A stretch of 64,000 nucleotides of DNA from Spirochaetaceae bacterium (lineage in GTDB: Bacteria; Spirochaetota; Spirochaetia; DSM-2461): assembly GCA_051531975.1 (NCBI GenBank), contig JAOPTT010000009.1, positions 32,001 to 96,000 of the forward strand, written 5' to 3'. Positions 7,602-22,326 of the stretch are shown here, in pieces. The translations under genes were made by a program, and so were the position numbers. Position 1 is the first letter of the stretch. Each line of letters begins with the position of its first letter. The notes beneath the pieces are model-generated. The model saw only the letters and a list, made by a program, of their open reading frames with translations, was not told where the DNA came from and made no database searches.

Positions 7602-8933
7602 CTAATGATTCTTAAGAGTTTTTATCGCCCAAAACAGTGTCATTAAAGCTGCTGACCAATTTATAAATATTAACCCAGTCCACACACCTTTTTCTGCCAT
7701 AGAAAAGTTGAAACAAAGTATATAAAAAATTATCGCCGGAGCTATTATCTGCCTATATAGTCCCATCCACATAATAAGTTTTGGCTTTTTTAATCCTTGT
7801 AATAGTGCGTTGCTCTGAAATAAGATTATGTAACTATAAAATGTAAAACCTTGTAGGAGCAGATAATCATAACCCATTCTAATAACATCTTCTGTATCAG
7901 TAAAAAGGCTTATTATTTGCTTTCCAAATATTAGTACTGGTGGAAGAATTATTAACATGACTACAAATCCCCCAAGTAAGGAGAGTTTGTAAGACTTAAT
8001 TACTCTATCTATTTTATTTGCTCCATTATTTTGCCCTACCATCGCTCCTAGTGCAACATTTAATCCGGCAGCAGGAACTAAAGCTATCTGCTCAACCCTA
8101 ATTGCAGCTCCATATGCAGCAACAGCATTACTTCCAAATGCTGCTATAAACCAAGTAATAACAAATGTTCCTATACTCATTGTTAAAAAGTTCGCAGTAG
8201 CTGGAACTGCCTGTTCTATAATTTCTTTAATATAGATCTTATCTAATTTATAGTCGCTTTTATTTAAATCTTTTAATCCCTCAGCTTTTAATACCTTATA
8301 TAACAAATATATTAAGCTTAGAAATTGAATTAGTACTGTTGCTAATGCAACTCCAGATTCATTCATTTTTAATGTATACATAAAGAGGGGATCTAAACCT
8401 ATATTTAATAGACAACCAATAATAAGAATATTTCTATAACTAACAGTATCGCCTCTAGATGCTAAAGCAGAAGAGAATACAGGAGCTAGATTTATTATAG
8501 GCATTCCGATAATTATAACTCTTCCATAATCCATGGCACCTCTAAGAACATCCCCCTCAGCTTTTAATAATCTAAAGACTGGTTCTAAAAGTAACAGTAG
8601 AATTATTGTGCTTATTAAAGAGAAAATAGTAGAAATGACAATCGATTGACTTAGATATTTTCTAGATTCATATATCTTTTTAGCACCAATCGAATTAGCA
8701 ATTAATGCTCCAGATGCTGCTGAAAAACCAATACCAAGAGACATAACTAATAAGTACAAAGGGAAGTTTAGTGCTAAAGCAGCTAGAGAATCGGTGGAAA
8801 GTTGACCTGCCCAGAAACTGTCTACAATATTGTAAAGTGTATTAAATAAAAGACCTACACTTATTGGTATTGCAAGTCTTTTCATATGTGGCAAAAGTGG
8901 CCCTTGTGTCATGTCTAATGAATTTTGTACCAT
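7602..8933 (-). CDS. MATE family efflux transporter
   Basis: LYNIVDSFWAGQL, LNIGLDPLF, GVALAT, about 12 TM helices; AAGGAG RBS before ATG 8933. Confidence 0.92.
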   Translation of the reverse strand: MVQNSLDMTQGPLLPHMKRLAIPISVGLLFNTLYNIVDSFWAGQLSTDSLAALALNFPLYLLVMSLGIGFSAASGALIANSIGAKKIYESRKYLSQSIVISTIFSLISTIILLLLLEPVFRLLKAEGDVLRGAMDYGRVIIIGMPIINLAPVFSSALASRGDTVSYRNILIIGCLLNIGLDPLFMYTLKMNESGVALATVLIQFLSLIYLLYKVLKAEGLKDLNKSDYKLDKIYIKEIIEQAVPATANFLTMSIGTFVITWFIAAFGSNAVAAYGAAIRVEQIALVPAAGLNVALGAMVGQNNGANKIDRVIKSYKLSLLGGFVVMLIILPPVLIFGKQIISLFTDTEDVIRMGYDYLLLQGFTFYSYIILFQSNALLQGLKKPKLIMWMGLYRQIIAPAIIFYILCFNFSMAEKGVWTGLIFINWSAALMTLFWAIKTLKNH

Positions 8934-9132
8934 TTGATGCTCCTTTTTCAATGTTAGCTTATATATAGAAGAAGCAAAACACATTAATAACTAAAGGTGT
9001 TAATAATAGATCAACGACGACATAGCAATTTAAATAGCACTAAATATTAGTTTAAAAAAAATAAGTACTATCCTATACTTAATCTAATGAAATATTTTCA
9101 TTTAATCTAAAAATGAATATTAAGGAGAAAAT

Positions 9133-9621
9133 ATGAAAGTAGCATTTATGGTTATAGACATGCAAAAAGAGTATTTTAAGGGCAGTTCAAAAGAATCTAT
9201 GGAATCTGCAGCCGAGTATATTAATGAGGTTTTGGAGTATTTTAGAGAGAAAAAGCTACCTATAGTGTGGGTTCAGGATATTGCTAAAGAGTCTGGAGTT
9301 GTTCCTGGTACTAAAGGTTTTGAGGTCATAGATATCCTAAATAAAAGTGATGATGAATTATCAATATATAAAGAATATGGCAATACTTTTAATAAAACAG
9401 AGTGTGGAGGTATCCTAAAAAAAGAGGGTGTTGATGTGATTGTTTTAGCTGGTTATTGTGCTGAAAATTGTGTTTTATCTACATACCGAGGAGCATTGGA
9501 TCTAGATTTTACTCCTATCCTCTTAAAAGATGGCATAGCCAGTGGAGACGCTAAAAACTTGGAATTTGTCGAAAAAATAAGTGATACAGTGCCATATAAC
9601 ATCGTCAAAAAATTGCTTTAG
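9133..9621 (+). CDS. Isochorismatase-family cysteine hydrolase
   Basis: VIDMQ, K..GNTF, AENCVLST catalytic triad motifs. Confidence 0.9.
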   Translation: MKVAFMVIDMQKEYFKGSSKESMESAAEYINEVLEYFREKKLPIVWVQDIAKESGVVPGTKGFEVIDILNKSDDELSIYKEYGNTFNKTECGGILKKEGVDVIVLAGYCAENCVLSTYRGALDLDFTPILLKDGIASGDAKNLEFVEKISDTVPYNIVKKLL

Positions 9622-9629
9622 GAGAAGTT

Positions 9630-10082
9630 ATGCTGACCTTTGAACCTGCAGAGTTTATGGATGCAGAAGAGTTAACTAGAATACAGATTTGTTCATTTGC
9701 AAAAGATGTTGAGGCTTGTGGAGATGGCCCTCCTGGTTATGATTCTGTAGAAAGTCAAAATGAGAAGATTCTCAAATATAATTTCTATAAAATATTAGAG
9801 GATAAAGTTATCGTAGGTGGGTTTTATTATACCTTATTGGATCCTGATACTTTAGAGCTTATAAGACTGTTTATTGAACCTAAACATCAGGGGAAAGGGT
9901 TAGGTTGCAAGGCGTTAGAGTTCTTAGAAACACTAAGTGAAATAAAAGTTATAACTCTAGAAGCTTCAGATTTTAATATTCAAAACCAGAAGTATTATGA
10001 AAATAGAGGTTATAATAATGTAGGGAAAAAATATTATACCGAGAATGACTATTCTGTTGTATATAAAAAAGTTATAAAATGA
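9630..10082 (+). CDS. GNAT acetyltransferase
   Basis: HQGKGLG acetyl-CoA motif, YYENRGY. Confidence 0.85.
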   Translation: MLTFEPAEFMDAEELTRIQICSFAKDVEACGDGPPGYDSVESQNEKILKYNFYKILEDKVIVGGFYYTLLDPDTLELIRLFIEPKHQGKGLGCKALEFLETLSEIKVITLEASDFNIQNQKYYENRGYNNVGKKYYTENDYSVVYKKVIK

Positions 10083-12068: not shown

Positions 12069-12748
12069 ACTTTAAATAATGCTTCAAAATATATTTTTAA
12101 ACTCATTTTAGATTTACCAGCACTACGTTCAATAAAAACGATAGGAAATTCTAAAAAACTAAAACCATTTTTAATTGCCCTAGTTTTTAGTTCAATCTGA
12201 AACATATAACCCTTTGATATTATAGAATCAAAATTGATAGATTCTAATACTTCTTTTTTCCAAAAATTGAAGCCACCAGTCATATCTTTTATTCCACTTT
12301 GTAGAATTATTCTAGAATATAATGACCCATATGAGGATATAATACTTCTAAACCGACTCCACCCTTCAATACCTCCGCCATTAATATATCTAGAGCCAAT
12401 TACAAAATCACACTTCTCATCAAATTTAGACATCATGGATTTTAAATACTTGGGTTGGTGGGAAAAGTCAGCATCAAATTGACATATATAATCATAATTG
12501 CTATTTAAAGCCCATTTAAATCCTTGAATATATGCGTAAGCTAACCCTTCTTTAATTTTACTTTCCACTAGATAAAGGTTTTTAGTTCGAATCATAAGGT
12601 CTTTTACACATAAGTTAGTACCATCGTTTGAATTACCGTCAACTACTAAAATATCTACATGGGGACAGTTACTAAAAACTTTAGTAATAATATGGCTAAT
12701 ATTTTCAATTTCGTTATATGTTGGTATTATAATCAAGTTTTTTGACAT
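12044..12748 (-). CDS. Polyprenol-phosphate glycosyltransferase (GT2, Dpm1/GtrB-like)
   Basis: IIPTYNE, VVDGNS.DGT, DADFSH, GSRY..GG, D.TGGF, GYMFQIE, GKSKM. Start set at ATG 12748. Confidence 0.92.
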   Translation of the reverse strand: MSKNLIIIPTYNEIENISHIITKVFSNCPHVDILVVDGNSNDGTNLCVKDLMIRTKNLYLVESKIKEGLAYAYIQGFKWALNSNYDYICQFDADFSHQPKYLKSMMSKFDEKCDFVIGSRYINGGGIEGWSRFRSIISSYGSLYSRIILQSGIKDMTGGFNFWKKEVLESINFDSIISKGYMFQIELKTRAIKNGFSFLEFPIVFIERSAGKSKMSLKIYFEALFKVWLLRFIK

Positions 12749-12754
12749 AATGCC

Positions 12755-12783
12755 ATAATAAAGCTTCATATTATAGCTGTCAA
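12755..12783 (-). promoter_or_regulatory. Sigma70-type promoter, leaderless
   Basis: TTGACA-17 nt-TATTAT, then 6 nt to ATG; no SD. Confidence 0.7.
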
Positions 12784-12792
12784 TAATAAAGC

Positions 12793-12821
12793 TTGTCAGA
12801 GATTATCATATATATTATTAT
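12793..12821 (+). promoter_or_regulatory. Sigma70-type promoter, leaderless
   Basis: TTGTCA-17 nt-TATTAT, then 6 nt to ATG 12828; no SD. Confidence 0.65.
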
Positions 12822-12827
12822 CAAATA

Positions 12828-13472
12828 ATGAAAAAGCTCATCATACTTTTTATATCAATCCAATCAATATATTCAAATAATTTTGACCAGTTAAACCAAG
12901 CAATTAAAAAATTAGATTATGACAAAACATTATTGAGTTTTGAAGCTGAAACAACAATATCTAATTATAATAAGATTACAGCTAAAACTTTAGTTAAATA
13001 TGATCCAAAGAATAAAGACCCTTATAGTTTGTTATTAAAAGATGATAAACCTCCTACTGAAATAGACATTAAAAAATATAAAAAACAGAGAAGTAAAAAC
13101 AAAAGTTTTAGTGCTGTAGATTATTTAGGAAAAACATTTACCTTTGTCTCTCAAGAAGATGATATTGCATATTATACCTTCACTTCGAAAAAAAATATTA
13201 TCCCAGGTTTTCCTTCAAAAATGCCAGGAAGATTATGGCTAGATGTGACAAATAAAATGATTACAAAAGTTGAAATATTAAACAAAGAAAAAAAAGTCAT
13301 ATTCCCAGGTGTTTCTCTGAATATGTTTATAATGGAACTTAAATTTTTACCATTTAATAAAGATATTACAGTTTTAGATTCAATGGATACATTTATAGAT
13401 GCCAAAATCTTTACTAAAAAGCTTAAACAAAAAATTAAAACAAGAACAAAGAACTATCTATCTGTCCCTTAG
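12828..13472 (+). CDS. Hypothetical exported protein
   Basis: MKKLIILFISIQSIYS signal peptide; basic, beta-rich; no recognised motif. Confidence 0.7.
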   Translation: MKKLIILFISIQSIYSNNFDQLNQAIKKLDYDKTLLSFEAETTISNYNKITAKTLVKYDPKNKDPYSLLLKDDKPPTEIDIKKYKKQRSKNKSFSAVDYLGKTFTFVSQEDDIAYYTFTSKKNIIPGFPSKMPGRLWLDVTNKMITKVEILNKEKKVIFPGVSLNMFIMELKFLPFNKDITVLDSMDTFIDAKIFTKKLKQKIKTRTKNYLSVP

Positions 13473-13499
13473 TGACGATGCAAGAATTAAATAATTATA

Positions 13500-13528
13500 T
13501 TGTCATAATTATTTATAGCATATATAAT
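13500..13528 (+). promoter_or_regulatory. Sigma70-type promoter of the radical SAM/Tat operon
   Basis: TTGTCA(13500)-17 nt-TATAAT(13523); a second TGGTATAAT at 13530. Confidence 0.65.
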
Positions 13529-13562
13529 TTGGTATAATTTTAAAAAAAATGGATGGTATAAA

Positions 13563-14573
13563 ATGGCTAATATTCTCCTTACCGAACAGTGCGTAAGATC
13601 ATGCCCATATTGTTTTGCTAAGAAACATATGGAGAATTCTGAAAATAAAAACTTGCAATGGGAAGATTTTATTTATATTGTTGATCTTTTTGAAAAGAGA
13701 AACCCTAGATATATGTCTCTTTTAGGTGGAGAACCTACTCTACATAAACATTTTGTAGACTTTGTTTTATACTTAATAAATAGAGATTTTGGTGTAACAG
13801 TTTTTACAAGTGGTATTATGAGTCCTTCTAAATTAGAGGCTTTAAAAAAGGCTTTAGCAGAGTTTCCAAAAGCAAAGGTAAGTTTTGTTGTAAATCTAAA
13901 TCATCCATCAATGTCTGATGAGAAAGAACTAGAGAGAATTGATGCATTTCTAGATGAGTTTGGAGAGAGTTGTACTTTAAGTTTTAACTTTTATACGTTA
14001 GATATGGAGATGGAATATCTTTTTGATTATATTGAAAGATTTAACTTAAATAGACATATTCGAATCGGTTTAGCTCATCCAATTCCAGGAGAAAAAAACC
14101 TTTGTATTCCTACTGACCAATTTGACGAAATGGTCGAAAAATTAGCAACATATATACCTATGTTTATTAAATATAGAGTTAGCCCTGGGTTTGATTGTGG
14201 ATTCCCACTTTGTAAATTTACCGATGATCAATTAGGTAAATTTAAGAAATTAGAAAAAGGTAATGGCTCAGGTTCTGTTAAATTTGGTTGTAATGCTGCA
14301 ATTGATATTGGTCCAGATATGACTGTATGGTCTTGTTTCCCTTTATCTAAGTATCATAGAAAAAGTCTATATGACTTTGATTCAGTTGATGCTGTTTATG
14401 AGTATTATCAAACAATGCATTATAATGTGAGAGATAAAAAAGCTGGAGTTTTTGAAGAGTGTGAAGGATGCCGATATCAAGAAAGTGAGTTATGTAAAGG
14501 TGGTTGTCTTGCGCATATAGTTAATACTGATGAAAGCATTATTAAGGAGGCTAGTGGTGTTAAACGTAACTAA
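13563..14573 (+). CDS. Radical SAM/SPASM-domain protein
   Basis: CVRSCPYC, LLGGEPT, PLC, GCNAAIDIGPD...SC, CEGC...CKGGC. Confidence 0.92.
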   Translation: MANILLTEQCVRSCPYCFAKKHMENSENKNLQWEDFIYIVDLFEKRNPRYMSLLGGEPTLHKHFVDFVLYLINRDFGVTVFTSGIMSPSKLEALKKALAEFPKAKVSFVVNLNHPSMSDEKELERIDAFLDEFGESCTLSFNFYTLDMEMEYLFDYIERFNLNRHIRIGLAHPIPGEKNLCIPTDQFDEMVEKLATYIPMFIKYRVSPGFDCGFPLCKFTDDQLGKFKKLEKGNGSGSVKFGCNAAIDIGPDMTVWSCFPLSKYHRKSLYDFDSVDAVYEYYQTMHYNVRDKKAGVFEECEGCRYQESELCKGGCLAHIVNTDESIIKEASGVKRN

Positions 14574-15429
14574 AAAAATAATTGTTGCTGCTTATGAGCC
14601 AAAGTTTGCAAATGATATTGGTAAACAGAAAATAGTATATTACACAGATAAATTAGAAGACGTTCTTACAATTTATGGTGATGCCATAGATAAAAACGAA
14701 CTTATGTGTATAAAAGTTGATACTGATAAAAATCTATCTGAACTTGAATTTAAAGATGAATGGCAAAGTATTCCAATTGCCCTTTATACTCCATCTGTTG
14801 GTGATCTATCAGAGATGTTAATACAGGGTAAGAAACTAAAAAAGTTTAATATCCAGATTTTCTTACCAATAGAAAATAAAGATACAATTAGAGATCTTAG
14901 AATACTTTCTTCTGTCGGTATCAATTGTGGTTTTTATATTAAAGATGAAAATTCAGATGTAGACTGGGAACAAGTTGATGATCTTTTTTATTACTATGCT
15001 TATACAAATACTGAAAAAGGAAATATAGAACCTTTTAGATATATAATTGAAAAAGACTATAGAGAAAAATCATTTGATTTTAGAGCTGTAATATTTGATG
15101 ATCCAAATAAATTTGTTTATGTAGACAAGGATTTTAACTATTCAGTAAATCTTGATGAACTTACTAAAGGTTCTTTTCTTGGTAATGGAATTGATGAGTT
15201 AAAATCATATATAAATGAAGAAATAGATTATGTTTCAAAAAAATCAGATATGTTTTCTAAAAATGAAATCTGTTCATACTGTAGTAGTTGGAGGTTTTGT
15301 AGATCTAATTATTTTTCTCAATGTCAAAAGAATGAAACATATAAAATGTTGTTTGATAGTGTTTCTGATTATCTTGAAGTTCGAGTAAAACAACCATCTC
15401 AGAATGTGGAAAAAAAATGGCAGTTATAA
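14557..15429 (+). CDS. Radical SAM-associated accessory protein with C-terminal SPASM-like Cys cluster and no CxxxCxxC
   Basis: AAGGAGG 6 nt before GTG 14557; CSYCSSWRFC...C at C-terminus; overlaps both neighbours. Confidence 0.7.
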   Translation: MLNVTKKIIVAAYEPKFANDIGKQKIVYYTDKLEDVLTIYGDAIDKNELMCIKVDTDKNLSELEFKDEWQSIPIALYTPSVGDLSEMLIQGKKLKKFNIQIFLPIENKDTIRDLRILSSVGINCGFYIKDENSDVDWEQVDDLFYYYAYTNTEKGNIEPFRYIIEKDYREKSFDFRAVIFDDPNKFVYVDKDFNYSVNLDELTKGSFLGNGIDELKSYINEEIDYVSKKSDMFSKNEICSYCSSWRFCRSNYFSQCQKNETYKMLFDSVSDYLEVRVKQPSQNVEKKWQL

Positions 15430-16523
15430 TTTTTAAGGCTATTGAATATTGTAATTCAAATTGTATTTATTGCAGCGTTATAGAGAAAGATGAAGGCCAT
15501 ACTATGAGTTATGAAAGGCTTGAAACTGTTTTTATACGTATGAACCAATATTTGGAAGAACTTCCAGACGAGATAATCGATTTTACTTGGCATGGAGGGG
15601 AAGCAACCTTATTAGGTCCTGAATATTTTAGAAAAGCTTTAGAGTTTCAGAATGTTCACTGCAAAAAGACTAAGAATAGGATTAAGCATATAATACAATC
15701 TAATTTAACATGTATTACCCAAGAAATTATTGATGTTCTTAAAGACCTAGGTATAAACTCAATAGGATCAAGTTATGATCCTATTGAGGGAATTAGAGGG
15801 ATTGGTAAAAATAGAGACTCTAAATTATATAAAGAATTGTTTTTTAAAGGTGTTGATTTAGTTGAGAAAAATGGAATGACTTGGGGGATTATTTATGTTG
15901 TTCATAGAAGATCTTTAGAAGACCCCGTAGGAATTTTTAACCATTTGTCAAACTTAAATTTAGGCACATCTCCTGTTTTTAACTGTATATATTTGTACGA
16001 GGATGATAAACATCATTTAAGTATTACCCCCGAAGAGTTTGCGGACTTTTTAGGAGCTCTTGTCCCTTTATATATGGAAAATCCTGAAAAATATAAATCT
16101 ATACGACCACTAAGCATGTTTATTGACTCTATAAAAGAAAAAACACCATTAGGTTGTGATTATGCAGGAAATTGTGCAAATTATTGGCTATATATTGGAC
16201 CTACTGGTGAACTATCCCACTGTGGTAGAGCAGGTGATCAAAGAATAATAAGTTATGGAAATATCGACGATACTAGCCTAAAGGAAGCACTAAATCATCC
16301 TTACCGGAAAAAAATACTTGCTAGACAGACGTATTTGGTTGATAATGATTGTAAAGGCTGTAAATATTGGGGCATATGCCATGGTGGATGTCCAGTGGAT
16401 GCATTGTCTATGACTGGTGACATTATGAATAAAGCTATGTCATGCGAAATGGTAAAAAGATTAATGTCAAAATATATTGAACCCTTAGTTGATAAAGAAG
16501 TGCAATTTTATCCTAATAATTAA
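15417..16523 (+). CDS. Radical SAM/SPASM peptide or protein maturase (anSME-like)
   Basis: CNSNCIYC, WHGGEATL, QSN, CDYAGNC...IGPTG..SHC, CKGCKYWGICHGGCP...C. Confidence 0.93.
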   Translation: MAVIIFKAIEYCNSNCIYCSVIEKDEGHTMSYERLETVFIRMNQYLEELPDEIIDFTWHGGEATLLGPEYFRKALEFQNVHCKKTKNRIKHIIQSNLTCITQEIIDVLKDLGINSIGSSYDPIEGIRGIGKNRDSKLYKELFFKGVDLVEKNGMTWGIIYVVHRRSLEDPVGIFNHLSNLNLGTSPVFNCIYLYEDDKHHLSITPEEFADFLGALVPLYMENPEKYKSIRPLSMFIDSIKEKTPLGCDYAGNCANYWLYIGPTGELSHCGRAGDQRIISYGNIDDTSLKEALNHPYRKKILARQTYLVDNDCKGCKYWGICHGGCPVDALSMTGDIMNKAMSCEMVKRLMSKYIEPLVDKEVQFYPNN

Positions 16524-16553
16524 AGTTAGGTTTTATATAAAGAGGTGTGAATT

Positions 16554-16760
16554 ATGAATGAGAAAGAAATCATGGAAACTGGATCAGAGAGCAAAGTAAT
16601 TTCTAGAAAGGAAGCTTTAAAAAGAATTTCTAAGATCGGTTTAGGTATTGGTGCTGCAGTTGTTGCTACAAGTTGTGATCTTTATTATTACGACTATACT
16701 TATAGTGACTATAGTGATTATTATTACAGCTACTATGTTTATACAAACTACTACTGGTAA
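16554..16760 (+). CDS. Putative RiPP precursor: Tat-like lipoprotein signal plus Tyr-rich core
   Basis: RBS AGAGGTG; SRKEALK Tat-like motif, hydrophobic GLGIGAAVVA, lipobox-like ATS-C41; core DLYYYDYTYSDYSDYYYSYYVYTNYYW. Confidence 0.85.
   Translation: MNEKEIMETGSESKVISRKEALKRISKIGLGIGAAVVATSCDLYYYDYTYSDYSDYYYSYYVYTNYYW
16701..16718 (+). repeat. 9-nt tandem repeat encoding YSD-YSD
   Basis: TATAGTGAC TATAGTGAT. Confidence 0.8.
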
Positions 16761-16763
16761 TCT

Positions 16764-16970
16764 ATGCTGAGTTTTGTAGAGATTGCAATAGTAGGTGGAG
16801 CGATTCTTTTAATTTTTGGATCAACGAAACTTCCAAAATTGGGCCGAACAATGGGTCAAAGTTTGACAGAGTTTAAAAAAGGACTTAAAGAGGGTATGAC
16901 AGATACTAATGTTACTGATGAAAAGAAAGATGAAGAAGTAGCTGATAAGTCTGATATTGTGAATGAGTAA
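16764..16970 (+). CDS. tatA: Twin-arginine translocase subunit TatA
   Basis: EI.IV...LLIFG..KLP.LGR.MG..L.EFKKG signature; acidic tail. Confidence 0.95.
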   Translation: MLSFVEIAIVGGAILLIFGSTKLPKLGRTMGQSLTEFKKGLKEGMTDTNVTDEKKDEEVADKSDIVNE

Positions 16971-17673
16971 TACATTAACATTTTTTGAACACGTCAAAGA
17001 ACTTAGAAATAAATTAGGAATCTCTTCCATTGTATTTGTAGTGGCATCTGTGTTTGGTTACATAATTTTTCCATCTGTAATTAGTTATTTTAATAACTTT
17101 TTAGATGTAGGACTTCATGTAACCAAATTATATGAGGGCTTTTTTATGCGAGTGCAGGTTTCTCTTTATATTGGTCTTATATTTTTTATACCAGTTTTTT
17201 TATTAAATCTTTTGTTATTTATAGTCCCAGGTTTTGAGAAAGGTGATAAAGCAGTATTTGTTTCATTATTTCTTCTCAGTATCATTTTGTATGTAGTTGC
17301 TATACTTTCAGTTAGTATCTTTTTACCTATCACTATAAATTTTCTTCAATCAAAATCTTTTATTCCTGATACTCTTAATAAGATATTTTCATATGGTGAA
17401 TTTATAGATTTCTTTTTTACTTTTTTGTTAGCATTTTGTGTATCATTACAGTTTCCAGTTGTATTATTGGTTTTGCTGTATTTCAAAATATTAAAAACTG
17501 CTTGGTTAACTAAGTTTATTCCATACTTTGTTCCTGTTGCATTATTGTTGTCAGCAATAATGACTCAAGATATACTTTCTCAATTTTTGGTTGCAGTACC
17601 ACTGTTTGTTTTATATTTATTGTGTATCTTAGCTGCAAAGAAGTTAAAATGGGGTGTTGATGATATTTCTTGA
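16963..17673 (+). CDS. tatC: Twin-arginine translocase subunit TatC
   Basis: FFEHVKELR, EGF, FIVPG, QFPV, TQD..SQ..VAVP..LY; six TM helices. Confidence 0.92.
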   Translation: MSNTLTFFEHVKELRNKLGISSIVFVVASVFGYIIFPSVISYFNNFLDVGLHVTKLYEGFFMRVQVSLYIGLIFFIPVFLLNLLLFIVPGFEKGDKAVFVSLFLLSIILYVVAILSVSIFLPITINFLQSKSFIPDTLNKIFSYGEFIDFFFTFLLAFCVSLQFPVVLLVLLYFKILKTAWLTKFIPYFVPVALLLSAIMTQDILSQFLVAVPLFVLYLLCILAAKKLKWGVDDIS

Positions 17674-19288
17674 AATAATTGCAATTCTTTTTATTATTTT
17701 TATTATTAATCCACAAAACTCTGTTTCTATGTTACGGAAAGCTGGTGTTTTAGTTGGAAAATTAAGAAAAGTAATAAATCAATTAAAATCTTATTCTAAA
17801 GACTTTAATATAACTAATCTTGATAATGAAGTTGCAGGTAATAAAAATAGTGGGGTAAATGTTAATAATGGAAAAGCTGACCATTCAACCACAGTAACAA
17901 AGATGGTTCTTTTAGATGTTATTGAAGCTAGTTATAGTATTAACATGACAAAAAATATAATTCCTTTTCTATTTGATAACAATCCAGATATTGTAAGTAA
18001 AACTATTACTATCTTAAAAAAGGATCCTCTGTTTTCATTTGAAAAGAGAGATTCATTTAGTAACTGGAATGTTGAAAAATTAGTAAGGAATCCCAATTCA
18101 GAATATTTTAATAAGGTTTTTGATCCTAATAGAGTTGCTGAAGTATCAGGAGCTATCTTTAGTATTCCTAAGGAATCTTTTGAGAAACATTATAAAAATC
18201 TCGCTGACTTTAACGGTATAGATAATTTAAACATGAAAACAATATTTTCTAAAGATAAAAGCTCATTTTTTGGTGAGTTTAAAAACTTAAGAAAAAAATA
18301 TATCGCTAAGTGCTATCCTCCACAGGGATTTGTATCACCTAGTTATAGATGTAATCTAGATTGTTCCTATTGTTTTTCTAAAGACTTATTGCAAAAATTT
18401 AATAACGATATGACAGTTGAACAATTTACATTGTATTTAAAAAAGCTTAAGGCTGACTATAATATTAAGGAAATTGGATTTTTTGGTGGTGAACCAACTT
18501 ATTTCAAAAAATTAAATGAGTTTATAGATGTAGTTGAAAATGAAAAACTATTTTGTAATATTGCCTCAAATGGTATTGTTGAAAATCAAATCTGGGAAAA
18601 AATTGTTTCTAGAGGTAGTCTAGCAATGATTACATTTCATATTGAGGATAATGATTTTTATACTAACGATACCCACTTACCTAATATTATATCTAATATT
18701 AAAAGTGCTAACCAATTTAAAAAACAGATAACTTTTAGATATAATATCGTAGATAGTGAGAGAACTGATTGGAGTTTTCTAAATAAATATATTGATTTAG
18801 TTTCACAGTTTAGGTTTAGTTTTGCTATTCCATTTCCTTCTGGTAATGGTGAAAACGAATATGTATCATTAGATGAGTTAAATAAATTTGGAAAAACAAT
18901 TGTTTCTATGATCGATCATATAGATTTTTATAGTAGAAATAGACCATATGAAATTGTATTAGCTAAACCTATACCTCTATGTGTTTTCTCTGAAAAAGAA
19001 TATTTGAGAATTTTAGAAAAAGTCAGATACAAAAATGTATGTGAAATTGATAAAAATAATAATACAAATAATCTTATAATTAATCCTGATGGTTCATACC
19101 AGTCATGTGTAGGTTTAAATAAAGACAAGTACATATTCAATGACTTTTTAGGTCAAGAGTCTCTTCCTAGCAGTTATCATATGAATATTGATAGAGTTAT
19201 AAATAAACCAATGATGGATGACTGTAAAAAGTGTTATCTATTTAATATCGGAGTCTGCCAAGGGGCTTGTTATGCCTACACCCAGTAA
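17654..19288 (+). CDS. TatB-like N-terminal domain fused to radical SAM/SPASM enzyme
   Basis: N-terminus FLEIIAILFIIFIINPQ...LRKAG.LVGKLRK (TM helix, Pro hinge, amphipathic helix); CNLDCSYC, FFGGEP, PLC, IINPDG...SC, CKKC...CQGAC. Start may be ATG 17660. Confidence 0.8.
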   Translation: MLMIFLEIIAILFIIFIINPQNSVSMLRKAGVLVGKLRKVINQLKSYSKDFNITNLDNEVAGNKNSGVNVNNGKADHSTTVTKMVLLDVIEASYSINMTKNIIPFLFDNNPDIVSKTITILKKDPLFSFEKRDSFSNWNVEKLVRNPNSEYFNKVFDPNRVAEVSGAIFSIPKESFEKHYKNLADFNGIDNLNMKTIFSKDKSSFFGEFKNLRKKYIAKCYPPQGFVSPSYRCNLDCSYCFSKDLLQKFNNDMTVEQFTLYLKKLKADYNIKEIGFFGGEPTYFKKLNEFIDVVENEKLFCNIASNGIVENQIWEKIVSRGSLAMITFHIEDNDFYTNDTHLPNIISNIKSANQFKKQITFRYNIVDSERTDWSFLNKYIDLVSQFRFSFAIPFPSGNGENEYVSLDELNKFGKTIVSMIDHIDFYSRNRPYEIVLAKPIPLCVFSEKEYLRILEKVRYKNVCEIDKNNNTNNLIINPDGSYQSCVGLNKDKYIFNDFLGQESLPSSYHMNIDRVINKPMMDDCKKCYLFNIGVCQGACYAYTQ

Positions 19289-20195
19289 GGTTGGAGTCAA
19301 TTACATAATATTCAATGAACTCTGGGACGATGTTTTAGAAAATGAAAGTAATCAACCTATTAAGACAATTGAGCTAAATAAGTTAAAAACTATATATTTT
19401 GACTATTTATCAAATGCTTTAAAAAACCTACAACAATCACATACAAATATCGCAGTAACTGTTTGGCTAATTGAGATTTCTGAATCAGGTATAAAAGAAG
19501 TCGATCTTAGAGAGCAATTATTTAATACATTACCATACGTAAGAATTTATACAATTCCATTCATGAAAATAAGAAATTATATTTCAGCTGCAAAGAGACT
19601 AGCAAAAGGATTATATAGATCTCCTAATGAATTACACGAATTTTTAATTCTACATATAATAAAACTATCAACAACTCCTTATATTGCTATTTTAGACACT
19701 GATAATCTATTTCTAAGGCAAGATGCTTTGAATATTATTTTCCAATCATTAGAAGAAGATAAAGATAAATGGATAGGTTGTATCATGGAAAAAGGTATTA
19801 AGAGACCTTATAACGATGGATTCACTCAAATGAGAGAGAGAATGCATAGTGTAGCCCTTTTTATTATTAAAGATCGATTTAATAAAGGATTTACTGAGAC
19901 AACAAATTGGCGGATAGATACTTTTGATAAAGTTAAATTAATACAAAATGATGAATGCAGAGATTATTATCATAAGTATAAATTCTTCGATACTTTGGCG
20001 TTGTTAACCGATCTATTTAAATATAACTTTGGTGTAAATAGAATAAAAGAGTTAAACAAAGAATTAAACTCCCAAGAGTTTGAAAAATTAACCATAGTTA
20101 ACGATCTTTTTGTTCATAGTAAATATTTGCATGGAATAGATTATATTTTTGAAAACTTAAAAGATAATAAATTCATTTCTTCAATTCAAAGGTAA
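19272..20195 (+). CDS. Putative GT-A fold glycosyltransferase or nucleotidyl-sugar transferase
   Basis: TPYIAILDTDNLFL DxD motif after a beta strand; late His (FVHSKY); ATG overlaps end of previous gene. Confidence 0.5.
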   Translation: MPTPSKVGVNYIIFNELWDDVLENESNQPIKTIELNKLKTIYFDYLSNALKNLQQSHTNIAVTVWLIEISESGIKEVDLREQLFNTLPYVRIYTIPFMKIRNYISAAKRLAKGLYRSPNELHEFLILHIIKLSTTPYIAILDTDNLFLRQDALNIIFQSLEEDKDKWIGCIMEKGIKRPYNDGFTQMRERMHSVALFIIKDRFNKGFTETTNWRIDTFDKVKLIQNDECRDYYHKYKFFDTLALLTDLFKYNFGVNRIKELNKELNSQEFEKLTIVNDLFVHSKYLHGIDYIFENLKDNKFISSIQR

Positions 20196-20203
20196 AAAAA
20201 GTC

Positions 20204-20255
20204 TTTTACGACTAAAGTATGATGTTATTAATCACTTTTACACCTATAGTCTGAT
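20204..20255 (+). promoter_or_regulatory. Tandem 20-bp operator-like direct repeats
   Basis: TTTTACGACTAAAGTATGAT (20204) and TTTTACACCTATAGTCTGAT (20236); 16/20 identical, 32 bp apart. Confidence 0.55.
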
Positions 20256-20303
20256 ATCGTTTTAATATATTAAATACTAATCTTATCTTATATGGAGGTC
20301 GCA

Positions 20304-21536
20304 ATGTCAATGTATAAAATAGTATTAGTAATAATTAGTATTTCACTTCTATTTTCATGTACAGAGCAAGAGTATTTAGAATTAACGGGTGATTATTCTA
20401 TTGGAACATCAGTTTTTGAATTAGAAGACAAATCAAGGTTAGAATATTATTCTGAGGAAGTATCTGAAAATAGAACAATTGTAATCAGAGCATGGTATCC
20501 AATTGAAGCCAAATCGGGTAAAACACTTCCACAATATAATGGTAAGGGAGTAGCAAAAGAATTTCAAAAACTTTTTGGTATACCTTCCTTTTTAATGAAA
20601 GATAATATTGGAAGAGCCTATACTGATGGAAGCCCTTTAAAAGGTAAATATCCTGTAGTCATTTTTAATCATGGTTTTAGTTCATGGGAATCTCAAAATG
20701 CTACAACAATGGAAGAAATAAGTTCCAACGGTTATGTTGTGCTAAGTATAAATCATCCATACGAAAGCCTTTTTACTCAATTTAATAATATGGATAGTGT
20801 TAAATTCTCTATACCTGGTTATAAAGATAAGCTTAAAGCTATGAATAAAGATATTGATGATATAACTAACGAGTTAATACAAATGGTTAAAACTATTAAA
20901 GAAGCAACTACTGAGAAGTTATATAAAGAAGCTGTTATTAAAATTACTCAATCAAAGGCTTACAAACCTGTTTTCCCATCTTTAAAATTGTGGATTGAAG
21001 ATACAGCTTTTTTAATCTCATCTCTAAATGATATTAATTTAAGTAATATAATCGACAGTGATAATATTGCAGTTATAGGTCACTCTTTTGGAGGACTTGT
21101 ATCTAGTGAACTTTCAATGTTAGGAATTAGTGGTATTAAGTGTGGCATAAGTTATGATGGACCTGTTCTATTTGATAATATGAATAAAGATATTTCTCTG
21201 AAAACCCCATTTCTATTTTTAGCAAGTACCAATGCTAAGTATGGAAAAACTGTTGTTGATCTGTCAGGTCAAAATGATTTTTTAACAACAAAAACTGATA
21301 AAAAAGTTATTTCAGGCTCAATAAATGGTAGTGGGCATTATAATTTTTCAGATATGGGTTATGTCTCTTTTCTTAAAAGAACATCGATGTTAGGTCCTAT
21401 TGATGGAGTTAAGTCGTTACAAATTATGAATGGTATAACACTGTCTTATTTAGACCATCATTTAAAAGGTGAAGTTGATCCAACCAATTCTTGGTTAAAA
21501 ATTTACCCTGAATGGAATGTAAGCAGATCTAACTAA
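20304..21536 (+). CDS. Alpha/beta-hydrolase lipoprotein (PAF-acetylhydrolase/dienelactone hydrolase-like)
   Basis: Lipobox LLFSC; WYP, YPVVIFNHG, GHSFGG, HYNFSD. Confidence 0.88.
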   Translation: MSMYKIVLVIISISLLFSCTEQEYLELTGDYSIGTSVFELEDKSRLEYYSEEVSENRTIVIRAWYPIEAKSGKTLPQYNGKGVAKEFQKLFGIPSFLMKDNIGRAYTDGSPLKGKYPVVIFNHGFSSWESQNATTMEEISSNGYVVLSINHPYESLFTQFNNMDSVKFSIPGYKDKLKAMNKDIDDITNELIQMVKTIKEATTEKLYKEAVIKITQSKAYKPVFPSLKLWIEDTAFLISSLNDINLSNIIDSDNIAVIGHSFGGLVSSELSMLGISGIKCGISYDGPVLFDNMNKDISLKTPFLFLASTNAKYGKTVVDLSGQNDFLTTKTDKKVISGSINGSGHYNFSDMGYVSFLKRTSMLGPIDGVKSLQIMNGITLSYLDHHLKGEVDPTNSWLKIYPEWNVSRSN

Positions 21537-22326
21537 GACCAACTAGTTCAAATCTACTATTAACACCAGTTTTTTTAAAAATGTTTGTTATATGTGTTTT
21601 GACTGTGGGTATTGATATAAATAGTTCTTCGCTAATTTGTCTGTTTGATTTTCCTTTTAAAATATAATGTACAACCTCTTCCTCTCTGGGGGAGAGGCCT
21701 TCAATTTTTTTTGTGTTAATGTTATGTGTAATACTCGTATAATAAAGAATACAGTATAAAAGATATATGAATGGATATAGACGAATAGGTAAGGTATCTT
21801 GAGATATTATATCAAAAGCTATTAATGGAAGAAGAATCATATCATATTTTGAACTCTGTTTTTCAAACTTGGTTTTGTTCTTTTTAATTACACTACCAAA
21901 CATCGTAAATGCAAATAGAATAACAATAAATATCCGTATATAATTTACATGTGGAGATAATATTGTAATAAAATTATTTTCAATTTTCATAACAAATAAG
22001 ATAGATATTAAAATTATCAAACCACTAAAAATGTAAAATGCCAAAATTGGTTTTAAATATTTATGGTGCTTATATTGTAATTTAACAAGGCTTAACATAA
22101 ATAATATGACCATAATAGAAGTTGAATAATTTAGAATATAAATTATTGAAGGGTGAATTGAACTTATATTAATATTTAGATAAAAAATTATTAGTGTTAA
22201 TAATTGAAGTATTGTAAAAGTACAAAAGACCCAGAAATATTCTGAGTTAAGATTTTTTAATTTTTTTAGTATAAGTACACCTGCAACAATTATCGATGCA
22301 AGGTATAGGATGTAAATATGAATCAT
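21529..22326 (-). CDS. Membrane-bound LuxR-type transcriptional regulator
   Basis: Multiple TM helices plus LSPREEEV...GKSNRQIS.ELFIS..TVKTH...IFKK HTH. Confidence 0.9.
   Translation of the reverse strand: MIHIYILYLASIIVAGVLILKKLKNLNSEYFWVFCTFTILQLLTLIIFYLNINISSIHPSIIYILNYSTSIMVILFMLSLVKLQYKHHKYLKPILAFYIFSGLIILISILFVMKIENNFITILSPHVNYIRIFIVILFAFTMFGSVIKKNKTKFEKQSSKYDMILLPLIAFDIISQDTLPIRLYPFIYLLYCILYYTSITHNINTKKIEGLSPREEEVVHYILKGKSNRQISEELFISIPTVKTHITNIFKKTGVNSRFELVGLS

Follow-up and report, generated by a model that had tools for sequence, protein, structure and literature searches.

A 64,000-nucleotide stretch of DNA from a Spirochaetaceae bacterium (assembly GCA_051531975.1, contig JAOPTT010000009.1, positions 32,001 to 96,000 of the forward strand; hereafter the window) encodes a 68-residue, tyrosine-rich peptide at 16554-16760 on the plus strand. 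The gene sits in a cluster that joins radical S-adenosylmethionine (rSAM) enzymes to a twin-arginine translocation (Tat) system. From 13563 to 20195 all genes lie on the plus strand, overlapping or nearly abutting, in the order: rSAM1; a pseudo-rSAM partner; rSAM2; the precursor; tatA; tatC; rSAM3, a TatB-like::rSAM fusion; and a gene for a 325-residue protein. We think it probable, if well short of assured, that the small gene encodes the precursor of a Tat-exported, radical-SAM-modified, Tyr-rich lipopeptide.

The precursor gene

The precursor open reading frame (ORF) translates as MNEKEIMETGSESKVISRKEALKRISKIGLGIGAAVVATSCDLYYYDYTYSDYSDYYYSYYVYTNYYW and ends in a stop codon. A Shine-Dalgarno-like site, AAGAGGTG (16540-16547, plus strand, read from the letters), ends 6 nt 5' of the ATG. 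Three parts can be told apart: the signal or leader (residues 1-40; 16554-16673), with a polar n-region, the Tat-like motif S17-R-K-E-A-L-K23, then R24-I-S-K27, and an h-region from I28 to S40; Cys41 (16674-16676), the predicted lipobox cysteine, which closes the motif ATS-C and is followed by Asp42; and the core (residues 42-68, DLYYYDYTYSDYSDYYYSYYVYTNYYW, which with the stop codon occupies 16677-16760), in which 14 of 27 residues are tyrosine. An earlier note on this DNA, made from the sequence alone, had described the peptide accurately: SRKEALK at residues 17-23, a Gly/Ala-rich h-region and ATS-C41 are all present in the translated ORF, as are the 27 residues after Cys41 with their 14 tyrosines (52%), the terminal Trp, and the triplets YYD, YSD (twice) and YTN. 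The 9-nt tandem repeat that it pointed out is found by Tandem Repeats Finder as TATAGTGAC, 2.3 copies with a 91% match, at 16701-16721.

The precursor is almost certainly a real gene and a member of a family. It is single-copy in the source genome (5.46 Mb, 98.5% complete, 31.5% G+C). A chance ORF in AT-rich DNA was considered and rejected, because the ORF is conserved across loci that differ widely in G+C content. The earlier note had asked for a search for unannotated homologs next to rSAM genes, and such a search of relatives recovers ORFs with a homologous leader and a Tyr-rich tail. A protein homology search with the single peptide returned one other protein; with the family alignment it returned 38, all unnamed or 'hypothetical protein', and the names of database cluster members around the precursor are uninformative. 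No component of the cassette bears a Pfam or NCBIfam name, and the named database copies of the precursor are all hypothetical proteins. The window precursor is the shortest-core member, among 36 cores compared, of a widespread family without a name.

Distribution and synteny

Searched against 40 relatives, rSAM2 has full-length orthologs, at 54-62% identity, in three (G022, G039, and G037); its other matches, in three further genomes and at extra places in G000 and G039, are different rSAM enzymes at 24-27% identity. All three orthologous loci run rSAM1, partner, rSAM2, small ORF, (tatA,) tatC, rSAM3, with G039 lacking an in-cluster tatA. Their small ORFs share the leader, end in a Tyr-rich tail, and carry RR at the position of the window's RK.

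A broader scan, with one genome per species, returned 69 loci. Among these, 41 hold rSAM2 orthologs at 40% identity or more (40-62%); one is a fragment and the other 40 are near full length, and three repeat the relatives' loci. According to the record titles they come from Spirochaetales, Spirochaetaceae, many Bacteroidales, Ignavibacteria, Elusimicrobia, Nitrospirae, Syntrophaceae/Deltaproteobacteria, and Thermodesulfobacteriota. The cassette is spread widely among anaerobic diderms, with gut and rumen Bacteroidales, judging by the titles, among them. In tblastn searches, rSAM1 was located upstream of the partner gene at 39 of the 41 loci, and the partner itself at 38. Thirty-four loci yielded 36 further leader-bearing precursors, two loci having two in tandem. 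At L047 there is a Tyr-rich ORF whose N-terminus could not be placed. L051, L053, L063, and L067 gave no precursor candidate; L051, L053, and L067 end near rSAM2 at a contig edge, and L063 is without the rest of the cassette.

The cassette has a spirochaete form, in which tatC and the TatB::rSAM3 fusion are present (6 of 41 loci, tatA being in the cluster in five of the six) and to which YcaO and tetratricopeptide repeat (TPR) genes are often added. At L029, L031, and L033, YcaO directly follows rSAM3, where the window has its 325-residue protein; the two proteins are unrelated. In related spirochaete clusters, at L013 (5865-6929) and L014 (2967-4031), rSAM3 is followed by a YcaO protein (PF02624; the L013 copy at E 1.1e-17) together with a TPR protein. 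Outside the spirochaetes, a GT9-like gene of the heptosyltransferase family lies 3' of rSAM2 in 23 of the 41 loci (for example L034 7128-8015 and L036 7130-7999); in two deltaproteobacterial loci, L060 (5854-8064) and L061 (5842-8043), a single ORF encodes it and rSAM2 as a fusion. The GT9-like genes suggest that the Tyr/Ser-rich product may be glycosylated in these bacteria. The Ignavibacteria locus L036 has, besides, a B12-binding rSAM gene (8377-9846) directly 3' of the precursor.

The tyrosine-rich core

Across the 36 cores (2680 residues), Tyr accounts for 41.9%, Ser for 14.7%, Asn for 13.7%, and Asp for 5.6%. Tyrosine is common to nearly all of them; serine falls to 1-2% in the deltaproteobacterial cores. 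Cores can exceed 130 residues. Most show a tyrosine period of three, with lags 3 and 6 enriched up to 3.3-fold and lag 2 depleted; the deltaproteobacterial cores and some from Bacteroidaceae, which read (N-Y-x)n, show it most strongly. In triceptides the substrate motif is aromatic-X2-X3, where X3 is specific to each family (PMC11499958, from the accessible part of its text). The family's period fits tandem units of this kind, and the window core contains such units as YYD, YSD (twice), and YTN. The earlier note had called aromatic-x-D/N triplets typical of triceptides; the aromatic-X-X spacing holds up, and the emphasis on D/N was overstated given the family-specific X3 reported in the same source.

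Two precursors from Bacteroidales loci, L032 (8040-8804) and L042 (8085-8807), end in a C-terminal Peptidase_S74 chaperone domain (E about 2e-16). This intramolecular chaperone is typical of trimeric phage tail fibres. At L054 (7000-7631) and L056 (7122-7721) the precursor genes are paired in tandem, and their cores differ.

The probable maturation enzymes

rSAM1 (13563-14573, plus strand, 336 residues) matches PF04055 (E 5.7e-15) and has a CxxxCxxC motif near its N-terminus and a weak SPASM-like C-terminus; it rises above no NCBIfam cut-off and has no sequence match in the PDB.

The partner (14530-15429, plus strand, 299 residues) belongs to no Pfam, NCBIfam, or PADLOC family. Its AlphaFold2 model (predicted local distance difference test, pLDDT, 87.2) matches rSAM/SPASM peptide maturases along nearly its whole length. 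With VIA-align, it superimposes on anSME (4k36_A) with a Z-score of 12.7 over 264 aligned residues and a root-mean-square deviation of 4.0; other maturases follow, namely ChlB with leader (9gm3_A; Z 12.6), CteB (11.2), TigE (10.1), and SuiB (9.3). The top Foldseek matches are CteB, anSME, and SuiB. Because the rSAM fold is there, the CxxxCxxC motif is missing, and the C-terminal cysteines are kept (C248, C251, and C257, with C271 nearly invariant), the partner is a pseudo-rSAM protein. Its family numbers 418 representatives at E of 1e-3 or below and 268 at 1e-30 or below (among 1.84 billion). Speculatively, it may work as a scaffold or leader binder. Complex prediction from the partner and precursor alignments scored 0.00 in both runs, a result that weighs neither way.

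rSAM2 (15417-16523, plus strand, 368 residues) is a rSAM/SPASM protein of the DynA/DarE/anSME branch. Its best NCBIfam scores, in bits with the cut-off in parentheses, are to DynA NF041298, 137.7 (450), DarE NF038005, 131.9 (650), and anSME TIGR03942, 128.1 (349.45). The triceptide families score lower: GrrM/OscB, 81.3 (310); AmcB, 73.5 (425); YhhB, 60.6 (445); XyeB, 49.1 (450); and FxsB, 31.6 (370). The link that the earlier note drew to triceptide rSAM enzymes stands in part: rSAM2 does fall in the branch of aromatic cross-linking enzymes and anSME, but it reaches no curated triceptide cut-off. rSAM2 is the likely cross-linking maturase.

Which reaction would the enzymes carry out? The most likely chemistry, as we see it, would join the Tyr ring to a C-beta in cyclophanes on Tyr-x-Asp/Asn/Ser triplets; we put this at a little below an even chance. 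Two observations count against it. rSAM2 lies below every curated cyclophane, darobactin, and anSME cut-off, so the proposed chemistry is an extrapolation; and the window core itself, with a lag-3 ratio of 1.08, has no clear period of three, which would be hidden because this core is saturated with tyrosine.

The same system might instead perform other reactions: anSME-like C-beta oxidation of Ser, Asp, or Asn, epimerisation, Tyr-Tyr biaryl or ether formation, or backbone changes, with GT9 or YcaO enzymes contributing elsewhere. The sole solved sequence relative of rSAM2 is indeed an anSME (4k36, profile E 3.6e-24), and a Bacteroidales rSAM2 member likewise has anSME as its best NCBIfam match, at 143 bits. 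Two active rSAM enzymes and a third suggest more than one reaction, the GT9-like and YcaO genes described above would add to the range, and Ser and Asn are plentiful in the family cores. What nearly all cores have in common, however, is tyrosine, spaced at a period of three that agrees with a motif of three residues; serine is scarce in the deltaproteobacterial cores, and inspection by eye finds no sulfatase-type C/S-x-P-x-R motif in the core. We regard such alternative chemistry as rather unlikely, more so than cyclophane formation.

Predicted cleavage site and lipidation

The earlier note took the leader for a Tat-lipoprotein signal peptide. This is borne out to the extent that Cys41 stands at the lipobox place and the source genome encodes both enzymes of lipoprotein maturation: Lgt (PF01790, one match, E 1.5e-57) and LspA (PF01252, two matches, E 5.9e-28 and 1.3e-16). 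Tat lipoproteins are a recognised class of substrates (PMC13673990, accessible text). The window lipobox, V-A-T-S-C41, fits a permissive pattern, with small residues at -1 and -2 and the Cys at the end of the h-region. In the family at large, the claim does not generalise: the permissive pattern is found in 16 of 36 precursors. The Cys-less members have AxA-type signal-peptidase-I sites at the equivalent place (for example ...MSADA-Q and ...TFA-Q). Either a lipobox or an AxA site at one position is what is expected of a genuine cleaved signal peptide. Six spirochaete loci have tat genes in the cluster; in five of these, and in the window, Asp follows the Cys, and the remaining one, L031, reads SR-C, which is no lipobox.

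Two features tell against lipidation. The Cys is at the lipobox place in just 16 of the 36 family members, and the Ala at -3 in the window is atypical. The classical lipobox has L, V, or I at this position. Cys41 might thus remain unlipidated: it could be part of the modified core, for instance as a thioether partner (thioether-forming CteB is among the partner's closest folds), or the signal could serve as an uncleaved anchor or be cut by signal peptidase I. The 20 members without a Cys there, and L031, would sit well with this. Yet the window Cys ends a 13-residue uncharged h-region, has small residues from -1 to -3, and occupies the same place as the AxA sites; the presence of Lgt and LspA and the recurrent Cys-Asp point the same way. 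We consider an unlipidated Cys41 unlikely and lipidation at this residue moderately probable.

The leader

Aligned at their first Arg, the leaders of 37 precursors (the window and 36 others) give the consensus [IL]-[ST]-R-R-[DE]-A-L-K-R-[IM]-A-K. The first Arg is present in 37 of 37 and the second in 36, the window alone having Lys; the following Ala is invariant (37/37), the Lys is kept in 35, and the next Arg again in all 37. The default TatP pattern, RR.[FGAVML][LITMVF] (PMC1182353, accessible text), fits 36 of the 37. In the same source, Lys at the second Arg position did not block Tat export. The window precursor has a polar n-region of about 24-27 residues, followed by the 13 uncharged residues IGLGIGAAVVATS (28-40) up to Cys41; over the 14-residue window that starts with the uncharged h-region, the mean Kyte-Doolittle value is 1.89.

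The Tat-type N-terminus of the earlier note thus gains support from RR at the RK site in the leaders of 36 of the 37 and from the tatA-tatC pair next door, on which the note was silent and which includes the genome's sole tatC. Tat export of the precursor is, in our view, likely. The invariant Ala and R-[IM]-A-K go beyond the generic S/T-R-R-x-F-L-K, from which we infer that some member of the cassette reads this segment as well.

Against a Tat signal stand several findings. The window precursor, with its R18-K19, lacks the default TatP pattern. It has no match in Pfam or NCBIfam, including the Tat-signal models PF10518 and TIGR01409; among the orthologs, that of G039 scores 15.0 bits against TIGR01409 (cut-off 16.7) and that of G022 goes undetected, so TIGR01409 is insensitive to this precursor family. 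Finally, Tyr-rich ORFs at L030 (3684-4103) and L058 (3788-4102) have RG and CR, respectively, at the twin-arginine position while keeping the subsequent DAIKRIA. Conservation is therefore weaker at the twin arginine than in the [DE]A[LI]KRIA after it.

An in-cluster Tat system

Directly 3' of the precursor lie tatA (16764-16970, plus strand, 68 residues; PF02416, E 5.7e-14; TIGR01411, 52.9 bits against a cut-off of 53.9) and tatC (16963-17673, plus strand, 236 residues; PF00902, E 2.4e-33; PDB TatC 4b4a, E 4.5e-20). The source genome has one TatC and one PF02416 match, both inside the cluster. The association extends to the class: the partner protein, used as a marker in 401 genomes of the window's class, was found in eight, all of which carry a tatC about 9 kb or less from it on its contig. 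In five of them the cluster-linked tatC is the only one (G000, G022, G037, G039, and G340); in three it is an extra copy beside another (G177, G191, and G239). Of the 40 relatives, searched with both queries, 11 have TatC and no rSAM2 ortholog.

In the source genome, two regular-expression scans gave no other convincing Tat-substrate candidate; the precursor alone, among [ST]-R-[RK]-x-[A/F]-L-K candidates, combines a lipobox with a moderate h-region. TIGR01409 has no match there at E of 10 or below, and matched 12 of 14 control genomes. Since TIGR01409 misses members of this very family, its census has low sensitivity, and the finding means that no other substrate was found by these scans.

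rSAM3 (17654-19288, plus strand, 544 residues; intact CNLDCSYC) appears to be a TatB-like translocase subunit fused to an enzyme domain. Its layout is an N-terminal helix, a hinge, and an amphipathic helix (about 1-49), then a linker, a helical domain, and a rSAM/SPASM domain. The N-terminal 80 residues of all four rSAM3 orthologs compared match TIGR01410 tatB from profile position 1 (E 0.019, 0.023, 0.0011, and 7.4e-07), with 15.2-29.6 bits that stay below the cut-off of 56.5. A profile of six rSAM3 N-termini has TatB chains as its top four PDB matches (E 2.9e-07, 1.2e-4, 0.0023, and 0.0069); the best, 9e02_F at E 2.9e-07, aligns 1-68 to 1-70. One database homolog of rSAM3 has precomputed PF02416 and PF04055 matches. 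In the AlphaFold2 model (mean pLDDT 74.7), helices 2-18 and 20-49 are at low confidence; next come a disordered linker, a helical domain (75-220) modelled with confidence, and the rSAM/SPASM domain. A PF02416 search found no free-standing TatB in G000, G022, G037, or G039.

The catalytic motifs of rSAM3, CxxxCxxC and GGEP, are intact in eight of ten orthologs, including the window's, and degenerate in two. Catalysis by the fused domain therefore cannot be general, a point against a finishing enzyme at the translocon; since some lineages do without the motifs, part of the domain's role may lie in recognition instead of catalysis. In one genome with a degenerate rSAM3 motif, G037, the partner gene (L014 8281-9116) is broken by one in-frame TAG, which may reflect decay or an assembly error.

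Might the leader serve mainly for recognition by the maturases, with export by Sec or none, and the adjoining Tat genes devoted to other cargo? The window's RK and the L030 and L058 leaders, which lose the twin arginine and keep [DE]A[LI]KRIA, would be explained in this way. Moreover, most non-spirochaete loci have no in-cluster tat genes, and the Tat-signal hidden Markov models stay below their cut-offs. On the other side are the near-universal RR, the tatC close by in every cluster genome of the class, the failure of the scans to find another Tat substrate in the source genome, and the fusion of TatB to an enzyme of the cluster. Together, these leave the recognition-only leader improbable.

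A proposed pathway

The preferred reading, a Tat-exported and radical-SAM-modified lipopeptide, can be set out as a sequence of steps. The 68-residue peptide would be made in the cytoplasm, where its leader segment, [ST]-R-[RK]-[DE]-A-L-K-R-I-[AS]-K, would act at once as docking site for the cassette and as twin-arginine signal. rSAM1, the partner, and rSAM2 would put radical cross-links in the core, most likely of the cyclophane type. A cross-linked product could not be threaded unfolded through Sec, and for this reason, we propose, it is sent to Tat. Export would proceed via a private translocase composed of TatA, TatC, and the TatB-like::rSAM3 fusion, whose enzyme domain may, at the translocon, modify the cargo one last time or proofread it. 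Outside the cytoplasm, Lgt would lipidate Cys41 and LspA would cut off residues 1-40. The end product would be a 28-residue, lipid-anchored, polycyclic Tyr peptide in the cell envelope, for which the earlier note offered redox, metal-binding, adhesion or antibacterial functions as conjectures. Of this scheme, the gene with its family and synteny, the Tat-type leader, the sole tatC inside the cluster, the TatB likeness of rSAM3, and the rSAM fold of the partner are observations; the chemistry, the sequence of steps, lipidation, proofreading, and the role in the cell are inferred.

A bolder version holds that the Tat translocase of these spirochaetes is a private export machine with an enzyme of its own, kept in the genome for a single 68-residue substrate, and that the TatB::rSAM fusion, sitting on TatC, finishes or proofreads the polycyclic Tyr peptide. 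This we offer tentatively, as a possibility about which we have more doubt than confidence.

The metatranscriptome of the probable source sample has one contig from the cluster, of 161 nt, which matches the start of rSAM2 exactly (15437-15597). No contig derives from the precursor; this counts against the pathway, yet coverage of the cluster by a single 161-nt contig is too thin for a verdict on expression.

That the product is an unmodified Tyr-rich structural or adhesive lipoprotein, with the rSAM enzymes acting elsewhere, seems very improbable: modification has not been observed, some cores are longer than 130 residues, and two carry the fibre-type Peptidase_S74 domain, but six or more groups of phylum level have the enzyme trio together with the leader-bearing Tyr-rich gene, conservation of the leader exceeds the needs of Tat, and the partner and rSAM2 resemble maturases of peptides that the ribosome makes and that are modified after translation (RiPPs).

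Leaders of RiPPs are normally cut off by dedicated proteases, and the products leave via ABC or similar exporters. With a leader that is a twin-arginine lipoprotein signal, the general envelope machinery (Tat, Lgt, and LspA) would finish a radical-SAM product. There would be a simple reason for some peptides to use Tat, in that a cargo can no longer be unfolded once oxygen-sensitive enzymes of the cytoplasm have cross-linked it. A TatB::radical-SAM fusion, in a genome whose Tat system is apparently kept for one peptide, would also provide a minimal system in which to study how Tat proofreads its cargo and controls quality. As an envelope component, the product would be of a new kind: a poly-Tyr rod, perhaps polycyclic, either lipid-anchored or periplasmic. 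If the bolder version is right, this would be the first RiPP-type product with a Tat-lipoprotein signal as leader, and the first maturase fused to a translocon. In the literature searched, which covered few subscription journals, the proposed route of export and anchoring is not yet described for such peptides, and no paper was found on a Tat-signal-bearing, Tyr-rich rSAM substrate or on a TatB-rSAM fusion.

Relation to known systems

Judged by its profile scores, the cassette appears to lie outside the membership of all the enzyme families compared, and its likenesses are partial. Triceptides, RiPPs with cyclophanes spanning three residues that are formed by the rSAM/SPASM enzymes called 3-CyFEs (XyeB, GrrM/OscB, FxsB, YhhB, ChlB, and HtkB; PMC11499958), share the arrangement of a rSAM/SPASM maturase adjoining a precursor with tandem aromatic-X-X motifs. 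The native ChlB motif is YDR, with Tyr as the substrate aromatic residue (same source), and among the partner's fold matches ChlB (9gm3) ranks second. Unlike triceptides, the window peptide has a Tat-type leader with a lipobox, and its family has cores of more than 130 residues at the upper end; its cluster has two active rSAM enzymes, a pseudo-rSAM, and a translocon-fused rSAM, with rSAM2 below the triceptide cut-offs. No triceptide with Tat export turned up in the literature searched.

DarE and DynA are the best-scoring NCBIfam families of rSAM2, yet far from their cut-offs. The aromatic cross-links formed by DarE are an ether and a C-C bond (PMC9055067, accessible text). Here, by contrast, the core is Tyr-rich rather than Trp-containing in the manner of the DarE/DynA substrates, and Tat genes take the place of an ABC exporter in the cluster.

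In HXS systems, the rSAM pair HxsB and HxsC, together with HxsD, matures the signal-peptide-bearing repeat protein HxsA in the cytoplasm, and the product acts in the periplasm (PMC13128918, accessible text). Two rSAM enzymes and a helper are the shared feature; rSAM2 scores 60.7 bits against HxsB (cut-off 370) and rSAM1 29.6 against HxsC (267.9). The window core, which contains no His, is Tyr-rich and not built of His-x-Ser, the peptidoglycan-binding part of HXS has no counterpart here, and HXS itself has neither Tat genes nor a lipobox. An antiphage role is not indicated for the window cluster. A defence-system label was rejected, because PADLOC matches nothing beyond a generic viperin-type rSAM.

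A signal peptide that both targets its cargo and binds a dedicated maturation factor is known logic for Tat-exported cofactor enzymes. Unlike these, the cargo here is a 28-residue peptide, and the TatB-like subunit is fused to a radical SAM domain. Class II Tat substrates share with the window precursor a twin-arginine-type signal that ends in a lipobox Cys (PMC13673990). A term search of the accessible text of that 2026 review of Tat evolution gave no instance of 'radical SAM', 'RiPP', or 'spirochaet'.

A further parallel is anSME, the nearest solved relative of rSAM2 and the best fold match of the partner. It modifies a protein destined for export while this is still in the cytoplasm. The window cluster differs from it in having no sulfatase gene, no C/S-x-P-x-R in the core, and an rSAM2 score below the anSME cut-off.

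Operon limits and flanking genes

A promoter-like site, TTGTCA-17-TATAAT (13500-13528, plus strand, 11 of 12 positions matching), lies just 5' of rSAM1. It is a hint only, as promoter-like sites in the region are no commoner than in shuffled sequence (50, with a shuffled mean of 50.3). Terminator-like sites were looked for in 12700-20400 and not found. At the other end, the gene for the 325-residue protein (19218-20195, plus strand) overlaps with its start the end of rSAM3 and is probably the last of the operon. The protein belongs to no family in Pfam, NCBIfam, or PADLOC, and in the Atlas it falls in unnamed clusters only; a hint of GT2 from one Atlas cluster, 20% of whose members are GT2, was not taken as evidence. 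Further 3' are genes for a platelet-activating factor (PAF)-acetylhydrolase-like lipoprotein with a classical LLFS-C lipobox (20292-21536) and for a multi-pass membrane protein with a C-terminal LuxR-type helix-turn-helix (21529-22326).

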